Positions 1,756 to 13,630 of a DNA stretch of 58,711 nucleotides are shown here, piece after piece; positions within the stretch are counted from its first letter, which is position 1, and the number at the start of each line of letters is the position of its first letter. The stretch covers positions 1 to 58,711 of the forward strand of contig PEUU01000020.1 of the NCBI GenBank assembly GCA_002781185.1, read 5' to 3'. This DNA is from Candidatus Jorgensenbacteria bacterium CG03_land_8_20_14_0_80_38_39. GTDB taxonomy: Bacteria > Patescibacteriota > Minisyncoccia > UBA6257 > GWB1-50-10. The notes beneath the pieces were generated by a model that saw nothing but the letters and a program-made list of their open reading frames with translations, did no database searches and had not been told where the DNA came from. Made by a program: the position numbers and the translations under genes.

Positions 1756-2115
1756 CCCCGAAGGAGAAACTTCGTTTCCCTACGGGGTAAACAAAAATTC
1801 TTGCTTTTTGCTTGCCCCGTAGTAAGCCGAAGGCTTTACTATGGGGCCCGCCCGAGCGTTCAGTTTGGCGCGCGAAGCGCGCCGTCAGTTCCGTTCAAAA
1901 AAGGTTCGGATTTCGTCAAACAAACGCACTAAAGAAAATTTGGTGTATTTATATTCCTCCACTCGAACTTACTTTATAGGTCCGGATTTGGTCAAATAAA
2001 TGCACAAGCTTGAATTAACACCTCGGCCTCGCCGGCATTTCCTCGCCTCTCACTTGCTCTTGGTAGAGACGCGAATTTTTTTGGTTTAAATGATTTTCTA
2101 TTAGTTTAAATATTT

Positions 2116-2176
2116 ATTGAAGTTCAACTTCCATAGTTGGTTTATGGAAAAATTATTATGGAAGTTGAACTTCAAT
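2116..2176. repeat. Hairpin with perfect 20-bp arms
   Basis: attgaagttcaacttccata (2116-2135) pairs with tatggaagttgaacttcaat (2157-2176) across a 21-nt loop. Confidence 0.85.
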
Positions 2177-2202
2177 AGAATTTCAGTGAAAATCAAATGT
2201 CT

Positions 2203-2230
2203 CAGATATCCCACATATGTGGGATATCTG
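2203..2230. repeat. Perfect 28-bp palindrome centred on ACATATGT
   Basis: The sequence cagatatcccacatatgtgggatatctg is self-complementary. Confidence 0.9.
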
Positions 2231-2270
2231 AAGACTCAAAAATTAGAAAGATATCCTTGAATTGAAATAA

Positions 2271-2312
2271 TGAACTAGCTTTTATCAGCGATAGCAAATA
2301 AAAGCTAGTTCA
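2271..2312. repeat. Hairpin with 15-bp perfect arms
   Basis: tgaactagcttttat pairs with ataaaagctagttca across a 12-nt loop. Confidence 0.8.
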
Positions 2313-2500
2313 AATTTAAAGATTGAAAAAAGAAAAACAAAAAACCGATATCAGGGGGTAAAAAAAACAGAAAATCCATATCAGAGGATAAAATAAAAAA
2401 GAAAATAAAAAACCGATTCTTGACTTTTTGATTTTGGTTGTTTAGATTAAAAACGTTCGTTGAAAAATTATCCGAAACCAAAAATTGAAAGGGACACAAG

Positions 2501-2803
2501 ATGAGAACGAAAACGGAGGGTTTTGAAGTTATCCCTGGTCTAACAACCTGGGCCAACAATTTTTTAAAAGAAGCCACACCAAAAGGGGTGTATAGCTTCT
2601 ATCTCGGGGACCATTTTTTTAATGTCCCCTTAAAAGAGTGGACCCTTCCTGAGTTTGGGGAAGTGGTCCGAGAACAAGTTCAGGCTGAGATAGATATTAA
2701 CCATCTCGGTCCAGCTCTTTTCATCGCCTTACGCGATAAGAATGGCTGGATTGAAGAGAGCAGATGGTCTCAATCTTTAATTGAGGTCTATCAATCAATT
2801 TAA
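2501..2803 (+). CDS. Hypothetical protein
   Basis: 100-aa ORF with normal amino-acid composition. A plausible sigma70 promoter (ttgact-17-tagatt) lies about 70 nt upstream. I recognise no family. Confidence 0.4.
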   Translation: MRTKTEGFEVIPGLTTWANNFLKEATPKGVYSFYLGDHFFNVPLKEWTLPEFGEVVREQVQAEIDINHLGPALFIALRDKNGWIEESRWSQSLIEVYQSI

Positions 2804-2822
2804 TATATTGAAGCCGTTAAAA

Positions 2823-3368
2823 CTAAAGAGCGGCTTCTTTTTTATTTATTTTAACCAAAATTGAAGAAAGCAGAAATTTTATTAAGAAAAAAGAAAGGAG
2901 AGCTATTAAAAAACCTCCTAAAATATCCGAAAGCCAGTGAACGCCGGTAAATATCCTGGCTAAGCCGTTTAGAAAAGCCAAAATAAAAAACCAAATTCCC
3001 CAACGCCGGTTAAAGTAAAACAAAACAAGGGCAAGGGCAAACAAGAAAGCCGCGTGACCGGACGGAAAAGAAGCGCCGGATTCAGGAATTAAAGAAGTAA
3101 TTCCCAAAAGCTCAAACGGCCGAGGCCGATAATAAAAAAACCTAATAACTTCCGTTAAAATTCCCCGGGAGAGAATAAGGCAAAGGCCGGAAAAAATAAA
3201 AACCAGCCATTTTTCCTTCCAGGGTTTCTGCTTAAAAATAAAAACGAGGACGGCAAGAACCAAAAAAATAGGAAGATATTTGGCTAAAAAAACAGCCAAA
3301 GCGTTAATCAAGGAAGAAAAACCGCTGAGACTAAAAATAAATCTGAAAATAGAAATATCCAAAGACAT
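2823..3368 (-). CDS. PAP2-family (phosphatidic acid / undecaprenyl-diphosphate) phosphatase
   Basis: Polytopic membrane protein with PAP2 motifs PSGHAAF and GVHWLSDILGG. The ORF track start at 3461 would overlap rpsR, so the internal ATG at 3368 (MSLDISIF) is preferred. Confidence 0.75.
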   Translation of the reverse strand: MSLDISIFRFIFSLSGFSSLINALAVFLAKYLPIFLVLAVLVFIFKQKPWKEKWLVFIFSGLCLILSRGILTEVIRFFYYRPRPFELLGITSLIPESGASFPSGHAAFLFALALVLFYFNRRWGIWFFILAFLNGLARIFTGVHWLSDILGGFLIALLSFFLIKFLLSSILVKINKKEAAL

Positions 3369-3379
3369 AAAAACCAAAA

Positions 3380-3580
3380 TTAGCGCCGGACAAAAGGCAA
3401 AAGACCTATTATTCTGGCTTTTTTTATGGCCCGGGCCAAAAGGCGTTGATGTTTGGCGCAAACGCCGCTATGCTGCGGGTCAATAATTTTTGCCTGGCTG
3501 GAAACAAAACGTTTTAAGACTTCAATGTCTTTATAATCAACTTCTTTTAAATTTTGTGAGCAAAAAAAACACTGTTTCAT
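3380..3580 (-). CDS. rpsR: 30S ribosomal protein bS18
   Basis: 66 aa. CFFC...DYKDIEVLKRFVS...CAKHQRLLARAIKKARIIGLLPF matches the bS18 pattern. It is the last gene of the conserved rpsF-ssb-rpsR order. Confidence 0.9.
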   Translation of the reverse strand: MKQCFFCSQNLKEVDYKDIEVLKRFVSSQAKIIDPQHSGVCAKHQRLLARAIKKARIIGLLPFVRR

Positions 3581-3637
3581 GCTAATGTTGTCCCGCCTAA
3601 ATTTTGTTCTCCAAAACTTTGGCGGGGACCAAACCTT

Positions 3638-4099
3638 TTAAAAGGGAATGTCTTCTTTGGCTTCTTTGGCTTCTTCTTCACCCAAATCAATTTCCGGCAA
3701 TTTTTCCTCTTTTTCTATTTCCTGATTAAAATCAGGGGCGGCATCAGCCGGCGCAAATCCGCCACCCCCGGCTGAACGAGGACCCAACTGCATTCGCTCG
3801 CAAATAACCTCCGTGGTTCTTCTGTTTTGGCCCTGCTGGTCTTGCCAAGTTCTAGTTTGCAAACGACCTTCAATTAAAACTAAACTTCCCTTTTTCAAAA
3901 ATTGATTGGCTACTTCCGCTTGCCTGCCCCAAACAACCACATTGTGAAACTGAGTGTCTTCCTGGCGCTGACCATTTTTATCCACCCAAAATCTATTTGT
4001 GGCCAAAGAAAAATTAGCCACTGATTTGCCGTTCGGCGTTGAACGCAATTGAGGGTCGGCTGTTAACCTCCCTAAAAGAAAAATTTTATTTAAATTCAT
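3638..4099 (-). CDS. ssb: Single-stranded DNA-binding protein
   Basis: 153 aa with the OB-fold N-terminus MNLNKIFLLGRLTADPQLR, a Gly-rich linker and an acidic tail ending DIPF. Confidence 0.9.
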   Translation of the reverse strand: MNLNKIFLLGRLTADPQLRSTPNGKSVANFSLATNRFWVDKNGQRQEDTQFHNVVVWGRQAEVANQFLKKGSLVLIEGRLQTRTWQDQQGQNRRTTEVICERMQLGPRSAGGGGFAPADAAPDFNQEIEKEEKLPEIDLGEEEAKEAKEDIPF

Positions 4100-4149
4100 A
4101 ATTTCTTTTCAAAGATAAAATTTTCTCCAAAACCGACCTTTTAAATTTA

Positions 4150-4287
4150 CCCCGTATAACAACTGCGATAGGTCTGACTCAATTTCTCCATATAAAGGAT
4201 ACCATATTAGTGAGAAAAGAACTATATCAAAATCTGAAACAGAACAATGAATCAGCCAGAAATTGCAATCGCAGTTGTATTACGGGG
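4150..4287. repeat. 138-bp element with 20-bp terminal inverted repeats (MITE-like or structured RNA)
   Basis: ccccgtataacaactgcgat (4150-4169) versus atcgcagttgtattacgggg (4268-4287) gives 18/20 complementary positions. The element fills the rpsF-ssb spacer and abuts the rpsF stop codon. Confidence 0.6.
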
Positions 4288-4288
4288 T

Positions 4289-4720
4289 TTACTGGAGAAT
4301 TTCTTCAATTTTCTTTTCTAAGGCCTCATTAGTCAAAACTGGCTCAAAAGGTTTTTTGACTTCTTTCTTGGGAAACGGCTGACGGCCCCGGCTTTTTAAT
4401 ACGGCTACACCTCCAGATTGTTGCCCTTCTTTAAAAGGAAGATTTAACAAAATAAAACGAAGAATTGTTTGTTCCCCTTTTAAATCTTTTTGAAACTCAA
4501 TAATTTCAGCCGGGTTGGCTAAAAATTGAATGAAATTAAAAAAAGCCGACTGAATTTTTTTAATAGGATAAGCTAAATTAACCTTGACTATTTCCCCTTC
4601 TTCAGTAATAGAAAAATTCCGCTTTTCCAAAAGATTTTTAACAATTGGACTGTCTTCCTCCAAAAGCAAAAATCCTAATTCGTATTTCCTAACTTCCTTT
4701 TCTGAATTTTCGTTATTCAT
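4289..4720 (-). CDS. rpsF: 30S ribosomal protein bS6
   Basis: 143 aa, positioned upstream of ssb-rpsR. The N-terminal YELGFLL region is bS6-like. Its start overlaps the rpoBC stop by 8 nt. Confidence 0.7.
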   Translation of the reverse strand: MNNENSEKEVRKYELGFLLLEEDSPIVKNLLEKRNFSITEEGEIVKVNLAYPIKKIQSAFFNFIQFLANPAEIIEFQKDLKGEQTILRFILLNLPFKEGQQSGGVAVLKSRGRQPFPKKEVKKPFEPVLTNEALEKKIEEILQ

Positions 4721-7700
4721 CTTCTTCTTTTTCTTCTACTTTATCAGCCTCTTTGCTCGGTGTCAATAAATCCTTGGGAATGCCTCGAAAAGCCGTACCG
4801 ACCGGTATTAATTTGCCGATAATGACGTTTTCCTTTAAGCCGCGTAAATAATCGGTTCGGCCTTCGGTGGCGGCAGTGACTAAAACCCGGGAAGTTTCCT
4901 GGAAAGAAGCGGCGGAAAGAAAACTTTCGGTTGTTAAAGCCACGCGGCTAATCCCCAAAATTTTTTGCTTGGCTTTGGCTAAATTTCCTTTCAGCTGTTT
5001 CATTTCTTTATTAATTTGCAAAAATCTGGATTTCTCCATTAAATCGTTAACCATTATCTCCGTATCGCCAGGGTCAGTAACCAAAACCCGGGAAAGCATT
5101 TGCCGAACAATAACTTCAATATGCTTGTCATTTATTGAAGCGCCAGCCGAAACATAAATTTTTTGAACTTCGTTAATAATATAACGCTCTAAGGCTTCTA
5201 TTCCCTGGTAAATTAAAACATCTCTTAAATTAAGAGGACCTTCATATAAAGGTTGACCTTTATACACCCTCTCTCCTTCTTTAATAAGAAGGTTGACATA
5301 AATTGGAACTGGATATTCCACGATTTCGGATTTTTTGCTTTTAGATTTAACTGCTTCCTGAATTTTAATAATTTTTTCATTGCCTTTTTCTTCTATGACT
5401 TTCACTTTACCATCGCCTTTGGCTAGTAAAGCCGCTCCTTTGGGCGGACGAGCTTCAAAAACTTCTTCCACTCTTGGTAAACCATAAGTAATATCCATAC
5501 CGGCTATTCCGCCAACGTGAAAAGTTCGTAAGGTTAATTGCATCCCCGGTTCGCCAATTGACTGAGCGGCAATAATGCCGATGGCTTCACCAATGTCAAT
5601 CGGCTTGTTGCGGCTCAAATCCAAGCCGTAGCAAGCCGAACAAACTCCAAAAAAGGATTTACAAGTTATTGGTGAACGAATTTTAACTGATTCCAGACCG
5701 GATTCTTGAATTTTTTTAGCTTGTTCCTGAGAAATTATTTCACCGGCTCGGACGATAAGTTTCCGGCCGATTCTAATATCCTCCAAAGCTGTCCGGGAAA
5801 AGAGACGTTCAGCAAAATTATAATTATACTCATCGCTTTCTTTTCGAACGATTTCTATTCCTTTGTTCGTGCCGCAATCTTTTTCTTTAATTATCAAATC
5901 TTGGGCAACATCCACCAAACGCCGGGTTAAATAACCAGCCTGGGCGGTCTTCAAAGCCGTATCCGTTGAACCCTTTCTGGCACCGTGAGTGGCAAAAAAG
6001 TATTCCAAAACACCCAAACCTTCTTTGTAAGACGATTTGATAGGCAATTCAATGATGCGCATATTAGGGTCTTGAACCAGCCCTTTCATTCCCATCATTT
6101 GATTAATCTGAGACCAACTGCCGCGGCTGCCGGAATCAATAATGCTGAAAATAGGATTGTCCGGAAGTAAAATTTTAGAAACCTCCTTGGAAACCTCTTC
6201 GTTAACTTTTGTCCAAAGTAAAACAGCTTTTTCTGTCCGCTCTTCTTGGGTTAAAAGCCCTTCCTCAAGCTGAGAATTAATTTCTTCCATTTCTTTTTCG
6301 GCCCGAGCTAAAATTTCTTTCTTGGCGGGCGGGGTAAGAACATCGCTCATATTCCAAGTAATGGCTGATAAGGTGGAATAAGAAAAACCCAGGTCTTTAA
6401 TTTTATCCAAAAAAACATAGGCAGATTCCGGGCCGCATAATTCAATAATTCTAGAAACCACTCGGGAAAGAGCTTTTTTGTTCATTGTTTCGTTGACGAA
6501 ACTTAACTCAGCCGGCAAAGCCCGGTTAAAAATCAACCGGCCATAAGTCGTTTCTATTAGTGATATTGAATCGCTATTTGAATTCTTTGGATTGGGAACT
6601 TTTATCTTGGTTTGAATGTCAATAAAACCGTTTTCATAAGCTAACATTGCTTCTCTTTCATCGGCAAAAATTTTACCTTCGCCTTTAGCCCTTTCTTTAA
6701 TTTTAGTTAAAAAGTAACAACCTAAGGTGATGTCTGTCGTGGGAGAAGTAATGGGTTCGCCGTTAGCCGGTTTTAAAACGCCTAAAGTGGCATCCATTAA
6801 ATGTTTGGCTTCATACTGGGCTTCTTTAGTCAAGGGCAAATGGACCGCCATTTGGTCGCCGTCAAAATCAGCATTAAAAGCCGCGCAGACCATTGGCGGA
6901 ATCCGAATAGCCAGGCCCTCAATTAAAATCGGTTTAAAGGCCTGAATACTTAAGCGGTGAAGAGTGGGAGCGCGATTTAATAAAACTCTTTTATCGGCGA
7001 TAACTTCTTCCAAGATTGCCCAAACTTCCGGCGATTCTTGTTCAATAAAACGATTAGCATTTTTAATGTTGTAAGCCAAACCTCTTTCAATAATCTTACT
7101 AATGACAAATGGCCGGAAAAGTTCCAAAGCTAAAATTTTTGGCAAACCGCACTCGTTAAGCTTTAATTCCGGTCCAATAACGATGACGGAACGGCCGGAA
7201 TAATCTACTCTTTTACCTAAAAGGTTTTGGCGGAAACGGCCTTGTTTGCCTTTTAAGGTATCTGCCAGCGAACGGAGGGGCCGGCGCCGGCTGGAAAGAA
7301 TTTGGCTGCCGGTTCGAGCCGTGTTATCAATTAAAGCGTCAACTGCCTCCTGAAGCATTCTCTTTTCATTGGCAATAATTACTTCTGGCGATTTAAGCTC
7401 AATTAACTTTTTCAAACGGTTATTGCGGTTAATGACCCGACGATATAAATCATTGAGGTCAGCGGTAGCGTAACGGCCGCCGTCCAAAGCCACCATTGGC
7501 CGAAGTTCTGGCGGCAAAACGGGCAAAATAGTTAAAATCGTCCACTCCGGTCTAATCCCGGCTTTAATAAAAGACTTAACCAGTTTAAGTCGGCGGCGTA
7601 AGTGAATTTGTCTATTAATATCTTTAACTTGCAGTATTTCTTTTTCTAAATTTTTAGCCAGAGAATTTAAATCAATTTTTTCTAAAATTTTTCTTAATGC

Positions 7701-10700
7701 TCCGGCTCCTCTGTCGGCTTCAAAAATATCCCCAAAGCGTTCGGCTAAATTAAGATATTCGTCTTCGTTTAGAATTAATCCCGGTTTTAAAATGGTTAAA
7801 ATTTCTTTAAGCTTGGTTTGCTGAGCGGTTAAATTTTCAATATCTGCTTCGGCTTTCTTTTTCAAAGATTTAAATTCTTTTTCCAATTCTTTTAAAATTT
7901 TTTTTCGGCTCCCTTCATCAACAGAAGTAACAATATAAGCGGCAAAATAAACCACCTTTTCAAGCTTGGGCAAAGAAACATCCAAAAGCAACCTTAATCT
8001 TGAAGGAACGGTCCGCAAAAACCAAATGTGAGCAATTGGAGCCGCCAAGGTAATATGGCCCATTCGTTCACGCCGGACTGCCGAACGCGTTACTTCCACG
8101 CCGCATTTTTCGCAAATGATTCCCTTATAGCGGACTTTCTTATATTTGCCACAGTAACATTCATAATCTTTAGTGGGACCGAAAATCCGCTCGGAAAAAA
8201 GGCCATTTTTTTCCGGCCGCTGAGTGCGATAATTAATGGTTTCGGCTTTCGTCACTTCACCGTAAGACCAAGATTTAATTTCTTCGGGCGAAGCAACCTT
8301 GATAGAAATTGATTTTAAATTTAATTCATCTCTACCTATATTTTTCCTCTCATATTTTTCCTCCTCTGTTTTTTCTTTATTTTCGTTGGTGAAAATTGAT
8401 AACCCCAAAGACTTTAATTCGCTGACCAAGACTTTAAAAGAAGCGGGAATGTTCGGTTTTTTGATGTCTTGATTCCTGATAATAGCCTCAAAAGCCGCTG
8501 ACCTTCCTATGACGTCATCGGATTTAATGGTTGACATTTCCTGCAATAAATGAGCTGCCCCGTAACCTTCCAAGGCCCAAACTTCCATTTCCCCAAAACG
8601 CTGACCGCCCATTTGGGCTTTTCCTCCCAAGGGCTGCTGAGTGATTAAAGAATAAGGGCCGGTTGAACGCATATGAATTTTATCCTCAACCAAATGATTT
8701 AGTTTCATCATATAAATGTAGCCGACCGCAATCGGCTGACGGAAAGATTCGCCGGTTAAGCCGTTATAAACAGTAATTTTGCCGCTAGCCGGTAAGCCAG
8801 CTTTAATAAGCTCCCCTTTAATCTCTTCTTCGGTGGCGCCAACAAAATTAGGAACAATGGCGCGATAACCAAGTTGATGAGCGGCCCAACCAAGATGAGT
8901 CTCAAAAATTTGACCCAAGTTCATTCGGGAAATAACTCCCAAGGGATTCAAAACAATATCAACAGGAGTACCGTCTTCTAAATAAGGCATATCTTCCACC
9001 GGTCGGATTTGAGAAATAACGCCTTTATTGCCGTGCCGACCGGAAAGTTTGTCACCGGCTCTAATTTTTCTAATTTGGGCAACTTCAACTTGGATTTTTT
9101 TAATAATTCCCGGTTCAAGCTTATCGCCCTTATCGCGGTCAAAAATTTTTATGCCAATGACCCGGCCCCGCTTACCGTTAGGCAGGGTTAAAGAAGTGTC
9201 TTTTACTTCCCGGGCTTTTTCTCCGAAAATTGCTTTCAGCAATCTTTCTTCAGAAGTTAATTCCAGCTCTCCTTTAGGAGAAATTTTTCCGACTAAAATA
9301 TCATTGGGCTGAACTTCGGCGCCGATTCTAATAATCCCTTCTTCGTCTAAATTTCTTAATTTTTCTTCGGAAACATTAGCAATATCCGGCGTGGTAATTT
9401 CCGAACCAAGTTTGGTTTCACGAACCAAACAAAGAAAGGTTTCTATATGAACCGAAGTAAAACAATCGCCGCGAGCCACTCTTTCAGAAAGGATAACCGC
9501 ATCTTCAAAATTAGCTCCCTCCCAAGGAATAAAAGCCGCCAAAAGATTTTGACCTAGGGATAAAACGCCTTGGTTGGTGGCTGAACCGTCAGCCAAAATT
9601 TCGCCCTTTTTAACTTTCTGGCCTTTTTTTACAATTGGCCGCTGAGAAAGACAAGTCGGCTGGTTGGGACGCTTAAATTTCACAAGGGGATAAGTTTCAG
9701 AACCGCTTTCGGTTTTAATAACTATTTTTTGGGCATCAACTTCGGAAACAACGCCACTGACATTGCTGATTAAAAGCTGACCCGAATAAAAAGCGGCTTT
9801 TTCTTCTTGACCAGTACTAACCAACGGCGCTTCTGGCCGAACCAGCGGAACGGCCTGGCGCTGCATATTTGAACCCATCAAAGCTCGGTTGGCGTCGTCA
9901 TGCTCCAAGAAAGGAATTAAAGAAGTGGAAACGCTGATTAATTGATTAGGAGAAACGTCAATAAAATCAATTTCCTCGCGGTTGCAAAGACCCGGTTTTC
10001 CTTTTATTCTTGCCTCAACTGTTTTTTCAATGATTTGATTTTTGGCGTTTAAAGCAATACCGCCTGAAGCAATGGTATACCTTTCTTCTTCCACGGCGTC
10101 CAACCAAACAGCTTCCAAGGTAACCGCCCCATTTTTAACCTTAAAATAAGGAGTTTCTAAAAAGCCGAATTCATTGAGACGAGCGTAAGTCGCCAAACTA
10201 TTAACCAAACCGATATTGGCTCCTTCCGGCGTTTGAATGGGACAAATTCGGCCGTAGTAAGAAGGAAGAACATCTCGAACTTCAAGGCCAGCTCTTTCCC
10301 GAGTTAAACCGCCTGGCCCCATAGTTGAAAGACGGCGTTTGTGCTCCAGTTCAGCCAAAGGATTGACTTGGTCCATAAATTGAGAAAGCTGAGAAGAAGC
10401 GAAGAAATCTCTTAAAACCGCAATTAAAACTTTGTAATTAAGAAGTTTAACTGGCTGCAAATCTTCTTCCGGCAAAGTTGACATTCGGTCTTGAACAACC
10501 CTTTTCAAACGGGCAAATCCAACTCTTAATCTCAACTGGGCCAATTCGCCAACTGCCCTGACCCGACGATTACCCAAATGGTCAATATTATCGGGCTCGG
10601 CTTGGGGATTATTGTTAAGCCGAATTATTTCTTTAATAATGGCAATTAGATCTTCTAAATCAATAAAACGGCTGTCTTTCTTTTTGTCCAAGCCTAAACG

Positions 10701-11534
10701 CTGATTTAATTTAAAGCGACCGACTCGGCCTAAATCATAACGGTCAAAGCGGCTAAACATCGGGTCAATTAAAGCTTGAGCGTTTTTAACCGTGGCTAAC
10801 TCGCCGGGCCTCAGTCTTTCATAAAGGTCAATATAAGATTCTTCAATAGTATGAACTTTATCCTTTTTTAAGGTGGCTTGAAGATACTGAATTTCTCCCT
10901 TGTCTTCTTTGGCAAAAGTTTCCAAAATTTTTTGGTCTTCGGTTAAACCGAAAATTCTCAAAAGTTCGGAAACCGGGGCTTTTCTTTTCCGGTCAATTTT
11001 AACCCCGATGAAACCGTCTTGACTGGTTTCAAATTCCAGCCACGAACCGCGGCTAGGAATGACTTTGGCGCCAAAATATCTTTTCCCGTGGATAACTTCG
11101 GCGGTAAAATAAATTCCGGCTGACCGAATTAATTGAGAAATAACTACTCTTTCAACGCCATTAATGATAAAAGTTCCCCGTTCAGTCATTACTGGAAAAT
11201 CTCCCAAATAAACATTATCTTGAACCTTGGTCCTTTTTCTGACCTTATCAATTAATTTAACTTTAATTCTTAAAGAGGCTTCGTAAGTTTGGTCTTTTTC
11301 CTTGGCTTGCCCCTCGGTATATTTCGGGGAATCAAAGCTGTAATCCAAAAAATGAAGTTCCAGTTCTTTGCTAGTATAGTCTTTAATTGGCGAAATCTCA
11401 TCAAAAAGTTCTTTCAAGCCTTCTTTTAAAAACCATTCATAAGAAAGGGTTTGAATTTCAATTAAATTTGGCTCGGGATATTCCGGACCTTGACGAGAAG
11501 AAAATATTTTGGTTTTTAACGCTGGTAGGGACAT
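4713..11534 (-). CDS. rpoBC: DNA-directed RNA polymerase beta-beta' fusion (rpoB and rpoC in one ORF)
   Basis: 2273-aa uninterrupted ORF. The N-terminal ~1045 aa are RpoB-like (…[13 protein letters not shown]…, ends …[11 protein letters not shown]). A ~26-aa Lys/Glu-rich linker is encoded at about 8315-8395. The C-terminal ~1200 aa are RpoC-like (YECYCGKYK zinc motif, [12 protein letters not shown] catalytic motif). Confidence 0.9.
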
Positions 11535-11544
11535 AACTAAAAAT

Positions 11545-12567
11545 TTAAAGATATTTTGCCCGATTTAAATTATGAGTATCCAGGTTTTTAGAAAAAATCG
11601 TTTCGCCATTTTTGGAAGAAAGGTAATACCAGTAAGGGCTGGCTTTGGACGTAAGTGCTGCTTGAATGGCATTGACGCTCGGATTAGAAATCGGCGTGGG
11701 CGTCCAGCCTAAATTTTTATAAGTATTGTAGGCCGAATTAAGGGTTAAGTCGTCTTTAGTTATTAAAGGATTGGGGCAATTTTTTAAACGGCCGCCGCAT
11801 TTAACATAAGTGACGGTAGCGTCAATTTGCAAAGGCATCCTTGCCAAAAGCCGCTTTAAAATGATGCCAGCAACCATCTGTCGGTCTTCAAATTTAGGCA
11901 CTTCTCTTTCCAGAAAAGAAGCTAAGGTAAGATAACGATACCAATCGGCATTATTAACCAGCAGCGGCCAAGCTTTATTTTGAAAATTGCCTAAAACTTT
12001 TTCCAGCACTTGGTCAACCGAAGAATACATCTTAAAATGATAAGTGTCGGGCATCAAAAATCCCTCCAGACTGTCAATATCAATATTAATCAAAAAGGGG
12101 TAACTATTATTAAGCCTCTTGGCCGGAAAACTGACCAGAGAATTCTTCTCAATGACTTTAGCGGCGCTTAAAATATCATCAATGTCTTTTAGGGTTGAAC
12201 CGTCCGGAACAGCAACAACCGCTTCATCTTTCCCGGCGGCCACTAAACTGTTAACAATTTGGGGTATGCTCATCGCCGCGTTTAAGTCATAAAGGCCGGG
12301 CTGAAATTTTTGAGCCTTACCGCTTAAAAGGGCATAAAGTTTAAAAATAAAAGCGGATTTTATTAAAGATTTTTGAACTAAACCATCGCCTATTTCTTTT
12401 AAACTATCCCCTTTAGTGATTTGAAACTTTACCTCCGGCGCCCCTTGAGTTAAAGGAACTAATCCGTAAAAAAAATAAGCGGTGCTAAATATAAAAACAA
12501 AGGCCATTCCGATGCCAACAAAAAAACGTAGGCTTAATAAACCTCTTTGGTTAAATTGAGGATTCAA
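11545..12567 (-). CDS. mltG: Endolytic murein transglycosylase MltG (YceG family)
   Basis: 340 aa with an N-terminal TM segment and YceG-like motifs LEGFLMPDTYHF, ASFLEREV and TPTPISNPS. Confidence 0.8.
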   Translation of the reverse strand: MNPQFNQRGLLSLRFFVGIGMAFVFIFSTAYFFYGLVPLTQGAPEVKFQITKGDSLKEIGDGLVQKSLIKSAFIFKLYALLSGKAQKFQPGLYDLNAAMSIPQIVNSLVAAGKDEAVVAVPDGSTLKDIDDILSAAKVIEKNSLVSFPAKRLNNSYPFLINIDIDSLEGFLMPDTYHFKMYSSVDQVLEKVLGNFQNKAWPLLVNNADWYRYLTLASFLEREVPKFEDRQMVAGIILKRLLARMPLQIDATVTYVKCGGRLKNCPNPLITKDDLTLNSAYNTYKNLGWTPTPISNPSVNAIQAALTSKASPYWYYLSSKNGETIFSKNLDTHNLNRAKYL

Positions 12568-13630
12568 GATTAATATATTGAATTATACTTATGAGGAAAG
12601 CATTCGTCAATAGGCTCGACCCTCCGTAACTTAAGAAGGGGAAAGTAATTCCGGTTACCGGCAAAAGAGCCAAATTGGAACCAAGGTTTAAAAAAAATTG
12701 GATGGCTAATGCCAAAACCGTTCCCAAACTAATAAACTTCCAAGAATTACTTTTCGCTTTTAAGCCGATTTGAATTAACCTAGCAATAATTACAATAAAA
12801 GTCAAGATTATAAGGCAGCCGCCAAAAACCCCCCACTCTTCAACAAGAGCGGCAAAAATAAAATCAGCTTGGGCTTCGGGTAAAAAATGAAACTGGCTTT
12901 GGGTACCGGCCATAAAACCCTTCCCTAAAAAACCGGCGGAACCAATGGCAATTTTTGCTTGAATGGCATTATAATTTATCCCCAAAGGGTCATGGGCCGG
13001 AAACAAAAAACCAATTATCCTATCTTGTTGATAAGGCTTAAGAAAAAAAATCCAGCTCAAGATTAAAAGAACCAAAATAAAAACCGTTCCCCAAAGCAAT
13101 CTTTTTTTACTGATTTTACTCATCAGCAAAAAACCGGCCCAAATACCTATTAAAACAACAGCCGAACCCAAATCCGGTTGAAAAGCGACTAAAATTGCCG
13201 GCAGCCAGGCGTAAAGAGATGAAATAAGAATATTTTTCCCTTGCCAAGCCTCAAGATGACGCCGAGAAAAAAAACTGGCCAAAATTAAAATTAGGGTCAT
13301 CTTGACTATTTCCGCGGGTTCAAATTGTAAATTCCCAATGCTTAACCAGCTGGTGGTGCCGCGAACTAATTTATTCTGAAGATTGGAAAATATCAAAAAA
13401 ATAATGCTCAACCAATATAAAACCAAAAGAAACCCTTTTTGATTGATAATTAACCGCCAATTAAAATTAATGCCGACAAAAATTATTATTAGCGCTAAAA
13501 CATACCATACCAACTGCCGCCAAAAAAAACGCTGACTGTAACCAAATAAGAAAGTTAAACTAAAAGCGGCCAATAAAAAAATAGCGGCCAATAGCCACCA
13601 GTCTATTTTTTTTAACCGGAGAATAATCAT
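12551..13630 (-). CDS. SEDS-family peptidoglycan glycosyltransferase (RodA/FtsW)
   Basis: 359-aa polytopic protein with motifs QPDLGSAVV, FIFAALVEEWG and PVTGITFPFLSYGGSS. Confidence 0.85.
   Translation of the reverse strand: MIILRLKKIDWWLLAAIFLLAAFSLTFLFGYSQRFFWRQLVWYVLALIIIFVGINFNWRLIINQKGFLLVLYWLSIIFLIFSNLQNKLVRGTTSWLSIGNLQFEPAEIVKMTLILILASFFSRRHLEAWQGKNILISSLYAWLPAILVAFQPDLGSAVVLIGIWAGFLLMSKISKKRLLWGTVFILVLLILSWIFFLKPYQQDRIIGFLFPAHDPLGINYNAIQAKIAIGSAGFLGKGFMAGTQSQFHFLPEAQADFIFAALVEEWGVFGGCLIILTFIVIIARLIQIGLKAKSNSWKFISLGTVLALAIQFFLNLGSNLALLPVTGITFPFLSYGGSSLLTNAFLISIIQYINLESSI

Follow-up and report, generated by a model that had tools for sequence, protein, structure and literature searches.

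Naturally fused rpoB-rpoC genes, which encode the β and β′ subunits of RNA polymerase in one piece, have been described as a special feature of Helicobacter/Wolinella and Wolbachia (PMC9696931, PMC6403173, PMC7483510). The fused RpoBC of Helicobacter/Wolinella was reported by Zakharova et al. 1998 and 1999, as cited in PMC9696931 and PMC7483510, and for Helicobacter pylori the product is described as one fused polypeptide (PMC9696931). A functional synthetic β-β′ fusion has also been mentioned (bioRxiv 10.1101/2021.11.05.467461). In the searchable literature, which is limited and does not permit a claim of unpublished status, no paper on an rpoB/rpoC fusion in Patescibacteria, Parcubacteria or the candidate phyla radiation (CPR) was found. 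Here, we describe a fused rpoB-rpoC gene on a contig of 58,711 nt (NCBI PEUU01000020.1, positions 1 to 58,711 of the forward strand; assembly GCA_002781185.1) from Candidatus Jorgensenbacteria bacterium CG03_land_8_20_14_0_80_38_39. This whole stretch of DNA is called the window below. According to our analysis, this is very probably a genuine fusion, with the only β and β′ subunits of a tiny, uncultured Jorgensenbacteria-like Parcubacterium from groundwater encoded as one polypeptide of 2273 residues.

The first-pass annotation of the window had likened the gene to the natural fusions of Helicobacter/Wolinella and Wolbachia. The architecture indeed agrees, and the protein belongs to neither family. 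Like the Helicobacter/Wolinella proteins (NF007172 / PRK09603), it is encoded by a single open reading frame (ORF) with β followed by a short linker and β′, and this ORF is the sole RNA polymerase core gene. However, it scores 2222.4 bits against NF007172, below the equivalog cut-off of 5372, and is about 600 amino acids (aa) shorter (2273 vs. about 2890 aa), since the lineage-specific insertions of Proteobacteria are missing from it. With Wolbachia (NF011417 / PRK14844; PMC6403173) it shares a natural β-β′ fusion in a bacterium with a reduced genome, but it reaches 2104.3 bits against NF011417, where the equivalog cut-off is 4632, and phylum, linker and length (about 2840 aa in Wolbachia) all differ. 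Since the scores are far below both cut-offs and the gene nests among split genes of Patescibacteria, it appears to have originated independently of the Helicobacter and Wolbachia fusions.

One Open Reading Frame Contains Complete RpoB and RpoC

The fused gene is located at 4713..11534 on the minus strand and comprises 2273 codons and a TAA stop at 4713-4715, as read from the ORF list, the translation and near-identical contigs. It starts with ATG, and neither the ORF list nor the translation contains an internal stop codon. Residues 1-1048 (8391..11534, minus strand) form the β (RpoB) module, in which Pfam detected the Rpb2 domains 1, 2, 3, 45, 6 and 7 in this order at residues 23-1047. The β′ (RpoC) module covers residues 1075-2273 (4716..8312, minus strand), and the Rpb1 domains 1-5 follow each other in order at residues 1072-2164. 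The E-values of all 11 RNA polymerase domains range from 1e-11 to 1e-122. Both curated NCBIfam profiles were matched nearly end to end and above their cut-offs: the RpoB equivalog NF001616 with 1480.2 bits (cut-off 896; profile positions 11-1092 of 1096) and the RpoC equivalog TIGR02386 with 1578.6 bits (cut-off 963.5; profile positions 2-1143 of 1147). These profile and domain matches far exceed chance.

The functional motifs are in place as well. The RpoB active-site region motif GDK(M/L)(A/S)GRHGNKG was found at residues 827-838, the catalytic Mg-binding NADFDGD of RpoC at residues 1554-1560, and both Zn-site cysteine clusters of β′ are intact (residues 1124-1148 and 1958-1970). All landmarks by which the RpoB end and the RpoC start had been recognized beforehand could be located, namely the C-terminal RpoB landmark at residues 1038-1048, the RpoC N-terminus, which starts at residue 1075 and runs over 1075-1089, and YECYCGKYK at residues 1124-1132. 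The claim that rpoB and rpoC are joined in a single 2273-aa ORF at 4713-11534 thus holds, as the translation is uninterrupted and both domain sets are complete. A whole-genome search of the 550-kb, 37-contig genome revealed no second rpoB or rpoC, and the fused gene is the sole copy.

The same ORF, with identical junction DNA, is present on more than 30 contigs in NCBI, JGI/IMG and ENA that were produced by different assemblers. On 22 contigs, the 2273-aa protein was read without any difference, and three variants with single substitutions, also of 2273 aa, occur on further contigs. Seven of these loci, which come from different samples and have contig names in the style of MEGAHIT or SPAdes, show 0-2 base differences to the window over 6822 nt and none at the junction. 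On one of the contigs (NCBI PCWR01000057.1, GCA_002787415.1), positions 1806-8627 correspond to 4713-11534 of the window and contain the identical intact ORF. Nevertheless, the only gene that the record gives there is an RpoC of 1208 aa with the ATA codon of Ile1066 as its start, and the RpoB part is left without a gene. This 1208-aa RpoC call is an annotation artefact that hides the fusion and not a biological split.

The Linker and the Putative Remnants of a Former Gene Boundary

The two modules are connected by residues 1049-1074, encoded at 8313..8390 on the minus strand; coordinates and composition of this linker were computed, and it was compared with the RpoB tails and RpoC heads of split relatives. 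The linker had been described as 26 aa long and rich in Lys and Glu, and it is; only its position, given as about 8315-8395, had to be corrected to 8313-8390. Charged residues account for 15 of the 26. Within the linker, an ATA codon (Ile1066; 8337..8339, minus strand) lies at or beside the place where relatives have the start Met of RpoC, as judged from annotation, alignment and the heads of these relatives. Likewise, the alignment of solved β′ chains begins 4-5 residues before residue 1072 of the full protein (residue 123 of a 251-aa junction probe), which places the ancestral RpoC Met at about residue 1066-1067. The purine-rich stretch GAGGAGGAAAAATATGAGAGG (8346..8366, minus strand), which encodes EEEKYER, is Shine-Dalgarno-like, with GAGGAGG...GAGAGGA 6-20 nt upstream of ATA1066. 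Compared with the junction DNA of relatives, it resembles the ribosome-binding region of rpoC, which in split relatives lies inside the RpoB tail, and may be a vestige of such a site. From this stretch up to the conserved N-terminus of RpoC, the reading frame is free of ATG, GTG and TTG codons. Scans for promoters and terminators near the junction did not exceed the shuffled expectation, and Rfam yielded no matches there. Among the 60 best PDB matches, no solved structure contained both halves in one chain.

Relatives of the window are referred to below by families within its order, labelled f1, f17 and so on; f1 is the family of the window, i.e., the Jorgensenbacteria-like Parcubacteria. In 27 f1 relatives, rpoB stops 42-120 nt past a shared anchor (48-60 nt in most), and the ATG of rpoC follows the stop after 2-24 nt or overlaps it by 8-17 nt; a few have 35-136-nt spacers, the longest of which carry palindromic inserts. 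These relatives have acidic RpoB tails, mostly of 16-20 aa, and RpoC heads of 8-11 aa, e.g., MNKNVDLK or MEKKLRDIK. Counted from this anchor, the junction of the window is 27 codons long and consists of 17 tail-like codons, AAT ATA at the position of the relatives' rpoB stop, and then GRDELNLK. As the length of the linker equals that of an RpoB tail plus an RpoC head, it is most likely not an insertion, but an old tail joined to an old leader. This points to a fusion that arose by the loss of stop and start codons.

In the putative ancestor, rpoB and rpoC would have been abutting or overlapping and translationally coupled, as in the present relatives of the family. The rpoB stop codon would then have been lost, the rpoC ATG would have decayed to ATA or a neighbouring codon, and the acidic C-terminal tail of RpoB (about 17 aa) together with the N-terminal leader of RpoC (about 8 aa) would have become the linker. 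One relative (G357) reads AAA TAA TAT ATG where the window has AAA AAT ATA GGT, which is suggestive only. Identity in the lineages compared is about 75-79% across the junction region and 71% at full length, and these lineages are too diverged for the fusion mutation to be reconstructed base by base; we therefore infer the mutational path in outline.

Long perfect inverted repeats were observed in three split relatives with rpoB-rpoC spacers of 123-225 nt: L013 (G018), L018 (G005), and L196 (CAYIEJ010000004.1, 3776-4000). Examples are CCCGTTAGAGACA...TGTCTCTAACGGG and CCCCGCCCCAGTTTTAC...GTAAAACTGGGGCGGGG. They look like small palindromic insertion elements.

Fused and Split Genes in the Order

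The 251-aa junction probe (residues 950-1200) was searched against 401 species-representative genomes of the window's order, and the candidates were verified from DNA. This verification was required because the length of an open frame can read through stops between in-frame pieces. Indeed, five genomes with a long apparent open frame (G018, G037, G014, G004 and G028) were rejected as fusions, since stop codons are present. Fusion was verified in 40 of 40 matched f17 genomes, in 5 of 5 f30 genomes and in the single f8 genome. The genome of the window is the only fused one among about 40 matched species representatives of f1, the others being split. In total, at least 47 of the 369 genomes with a junction-probe match are fused. 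Separate genes are thus the rule in f1, but f17 and f8+f30 are wholly fused. In the window's own family the gene is unusual; with two wholly fused clades in the order, it is less exceptional than was implied by the earlier statement that such fusions are not the bacterial norm.

The fused RpoBC proteins of f17 and f8+f30 share phylum, order, domain content, similar size and a short charged linker with the protein of the window. However, its linker is unrelated to QPLYExExDRKDNFS of f17 and EIIKSxEQKDRLEKDLKDIQ of f30, and the gene does not belong to f17 but to the f1 clade (support 100/100), a family in which separate genes prevail. The 15-aa motif of f17 is conserved and has been kept across many genera (e.g., L130, L131 and P0014), which suggests that this linker is now a constrained structural element rather than a free tether. 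One genome of family f24 (G195) contains two rpoBC loci, a split one (L138, G195:C11) and a fused one (L139, G195:C3:31241-34957) that nests within f17; the latter is probably a mis-binned contig. In family f7, in-frame TGA codons were found inside rpoB/rpoC (L009, G030:C7:5294-9091; also G060, G106 and G215). In seven of nine cases they are aligned with a Trp of the window's protein, suggesting that f7 may read TGA as Trp.

Beyond the order, no further stop-free single-piece junction was found in 401 genomes sampled evenly from the class, about 380 of which lie outside the order, with an E-value cut that could miss very divergent linkers. Among the best 150 RpoB matches in a 401-genome sample of the phylum, only the RpoB open frame of the window exceeds 2000 aa. 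In a collection of 5.8 billion proteins, the best 120 of 8000 scored junction matches all span the junction; most are 2190-2320 aa long and a few are truncated. The names on these 120 are only 'subunit beta'' or 'beta' of Paceibacterota, Minisyncoccia or Patescibacteria. Fusions of this kind from CPR bacteria number well over a hundred in public databases. A junction search of genome contigs was uninformative: the back-translated patterns are universal RNA polymerase motifs, tblastn ignores stops, and matches came from throughout bacteria. The nearest separate RpoC proteins have at most 71% identity and, where named, belong to Candidatus Jorgensenbacteria or Brennerbacteria.

Gene Trees Require Several Changes between the Fused and the Split State

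Three gene trees were calculated with the linker excluded: a quick tree of 91 rows and 963 columns, a tree of full-length RpoB + RpoC with 40 rows and 2217 columns, and a tree of 41 rows and 2216 columns to which the closest split relative was added. Family f17 forms a single fused clade (support 99-100). The f8+f30 genes form another (100/100), which is sister to f1 (92/85 in the 40-row tree, 96/90 in the 41-row tree). The gene of the window lies inside f1 (100/100) on a branch of its own (0.31 substitutions per site), which emerges where the base of the family is unresolved. The contig of the closest split relative by RpoC (71%) groups with the f1 core and not beside the window, so that this long branch stays unbroken. 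Further fused proteins were found at other places. P0004, a database protein in which the Met is still present (…ARRTMEQAGDIT), lies deep in f1, P0011 lies within the otherwise split f6, and P0095 is located elsewhere in the tree. P0004 and P0095 are known from one contig each; f17, f8+f30, the window's lineage and P0011 within f6 are the fused lineages with several or many contigs.

The trees need six changes of fused/split state, and at least five of them are forced by well-supported branches. No bootstrap tree of the 40-row and 41-row alignments allowed a single origin of the fusion. In the approximately unbiased (AU) test on the quick 91-row tree, neither a grouping of the window with f8+f30 (p = 0.11) nor one with P0004 (p = 0.35) was rejected. 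We consider it probable that the fusion is private to the lineage of the window. Tail and head lengths of the f1 type and a linker that is unalignable with those of f8 or f30 favour such a private origin.

Gene Neighbourhood and the Omega Subunit

Downstream of rpoBC, the ORF list shows the gene for ribosomal protein S6, rpsF (4289..4720, minus strand), and PF01250 was found in its identical counterparts on other contigs; rpsF begins with an ATG and shares its first 8 nt with the end of rpoBC. On the other side, a yceG/mltG-like gene (11545..12567, minus strand; ORF list, PF02618) ends 10 nt upstream of the rpoBC start codon, and ftsW/rodA (12551-13630; PF01098) is located further upstream. 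The gene order at 3638-13630 of the window is non-canonical, with ftsW/rodA, yceG (mltG), rpoBC, rpsF and ssb, and rpsR comes next on an identical contig. The rplKAJL genes are absent upstream of rpoBC.

The omega subunit (PF01192, RpoZ/Rpb6) was undetectable in all 41 genomes of the order that were searched (that of the window and 40 relatives), and all 14 control genomes were matched. A link between omega loss and fusion was rejected, as omega is undetectable in fused and split genomes alike and there is no correlation within the order. The apparent absence of omega could nevertheless be a permissive or selective background for tethering.

Function of the Fused Protein and Alternative Explanations

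The single product would have a mass of about 255 kDa and consist of β, a highly charged tether of 26 residues, and β′. In bacterial RNA polymerase, the C-terminus of β adjoins the N-terminus of β′, and both contribute to the clamp region. Since these termini lie side by side, the flexible tether should leave the enzyme functional. An engineered β-β′ fusion is tolerated by E. coli; the original study is reportedly that of Severinov et al. in J Biol Chem in 1997. Tethering the β C-terminus to the β′ N-terminus is thus compatible with activity, which gives a mechanistic basis for expecting function here, although the engineered protein is artificial and from another organism. We infer that one polypeptide is made and that it is active. 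The tether would enforce 1:1 stoichiometry and co-assembly of β and β′.

The gene could also be a sequencing or assembly artefact, with a stop or a frameshift between rpoB and rpoC in the real genome. The source is a metagenome-assembled genome of 37 contigs, and the closest relatives often have both genes in frame with one TAA between them, so that one wrong base could fake a fusion. However, the identical junction and the intact ORF recur in independent NCBI, JGI and ENA assemblies of different samples (22 exact contigs plus the three variants of the same length), and homopolymer runs in the linker are too short for an indel error to be likely at every site; an assembly error is therefore very unlikely indeed. 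Alternatively, the ORF is fused, yet the cell makes separate β and β′, either by internal initiation at ATA1066 or by proteolysis of the linker. The Shine-Dalgarno-like GAGGAGG...GAGAGGA upstream of this codon, the choice of the same ATA by the NCBI pipeline on an identical contig, and a highly charged, probably exposed linker would agree with this idea. But ATA is a very poor initiation codon, and separate translation of β′ is unlikely because there is no in-frame ATG, GTG or TTG before the conserved RpoC residues. In addition, the purine-rich stretch is equally explained by Glu, Lys and Arg codons, no sign of a cleavage site was found, and the H. pylori gene is described as giving one fused polypeptide (PMC9696931). 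Separate subunits from the fused gene are thus quite improbable.

The origin of the fusion may be older than a private event in the window's lineage. One old fusion in the ancestor of f1+f8+f30 could have been undone by fission in the rest of f1 and retained in the window. The wholly fused f8+f30 clade is sister to f1, with the window at the base of the latter, and provided that the rest of f1 is a single clade, a gain plus a loss is as parsimonious as two gains; nor does the AU test speak against a clade of the window and f8/f30. On the other hand, the best trees place the window within f1 (100/100), and in the 41-row tree a split relative (G006) branches below it, albeit weakly (70/25), which would need two fissions. 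The window's linker cannot be aligned with that of f30 (EIIKSNEQKDRLEKDLKDIQ) or f8 (DIEKKGDEIK), and its tail and head portions are as long as those in split f1 genes. Moreover, fission would have to create a stop, a ribosome-binding site and a start together, a harder step than losing a stop. We regard an old fusion as possible, but rather doubtful. Some points weigh against a genuine and private fusion in general. The evidence is at the level of assembled sequence, i.e., contigs, ORF and comparison. The contigs carrying the ORF are nearly clonal and hence offer no evolutionary depth to show purifying selection on the frame of the linker; what they demonstrate is reproducibility, not long-term selection. 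With the nearest relatives only about 71-72% identical over the full-length protein, the mutational path is not recoverable base by base, and the AU result for the window with the fused f8+f30 is compatible with an older shared fusion. Finally, the AlphaFold2 model of residues 900-1300, calculated with 28 fused homologues, is too poor to describe the tether (mean predicted local distance difference test score, pLDDT, 56; predicted template modelling score, pTM, 0.38).

The genuine fusion of rpoB and rpoC in the window adds a well-supported, probably independently evolved case from the CPR. Its architecture is known and reveals no new kind of system. Such fusions arose repeatedly in one order, and this recurrence is a wider pattern that is apparently undescribed. 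The finding has consequences for annotation, as the identical ORF was artificially split by NCBI with RpoC called from an ATA, and it bears on marker-gene phylogenomics in which RpoB and RpoC are handled as two proteins. It also raises the question of how RNA polymerase is assembled in organisms apparently devoid of omega. We consider it unlikely that the β-β′ fusion is a recurrent selected trait of one Patescibacteria order and not a neutral accident. If it were, tethering may replace a missing β′-assembly chaperone in an order without detectable omega, or may guarantee a 1:1 supply of subunits in very small, slow-growing cells.

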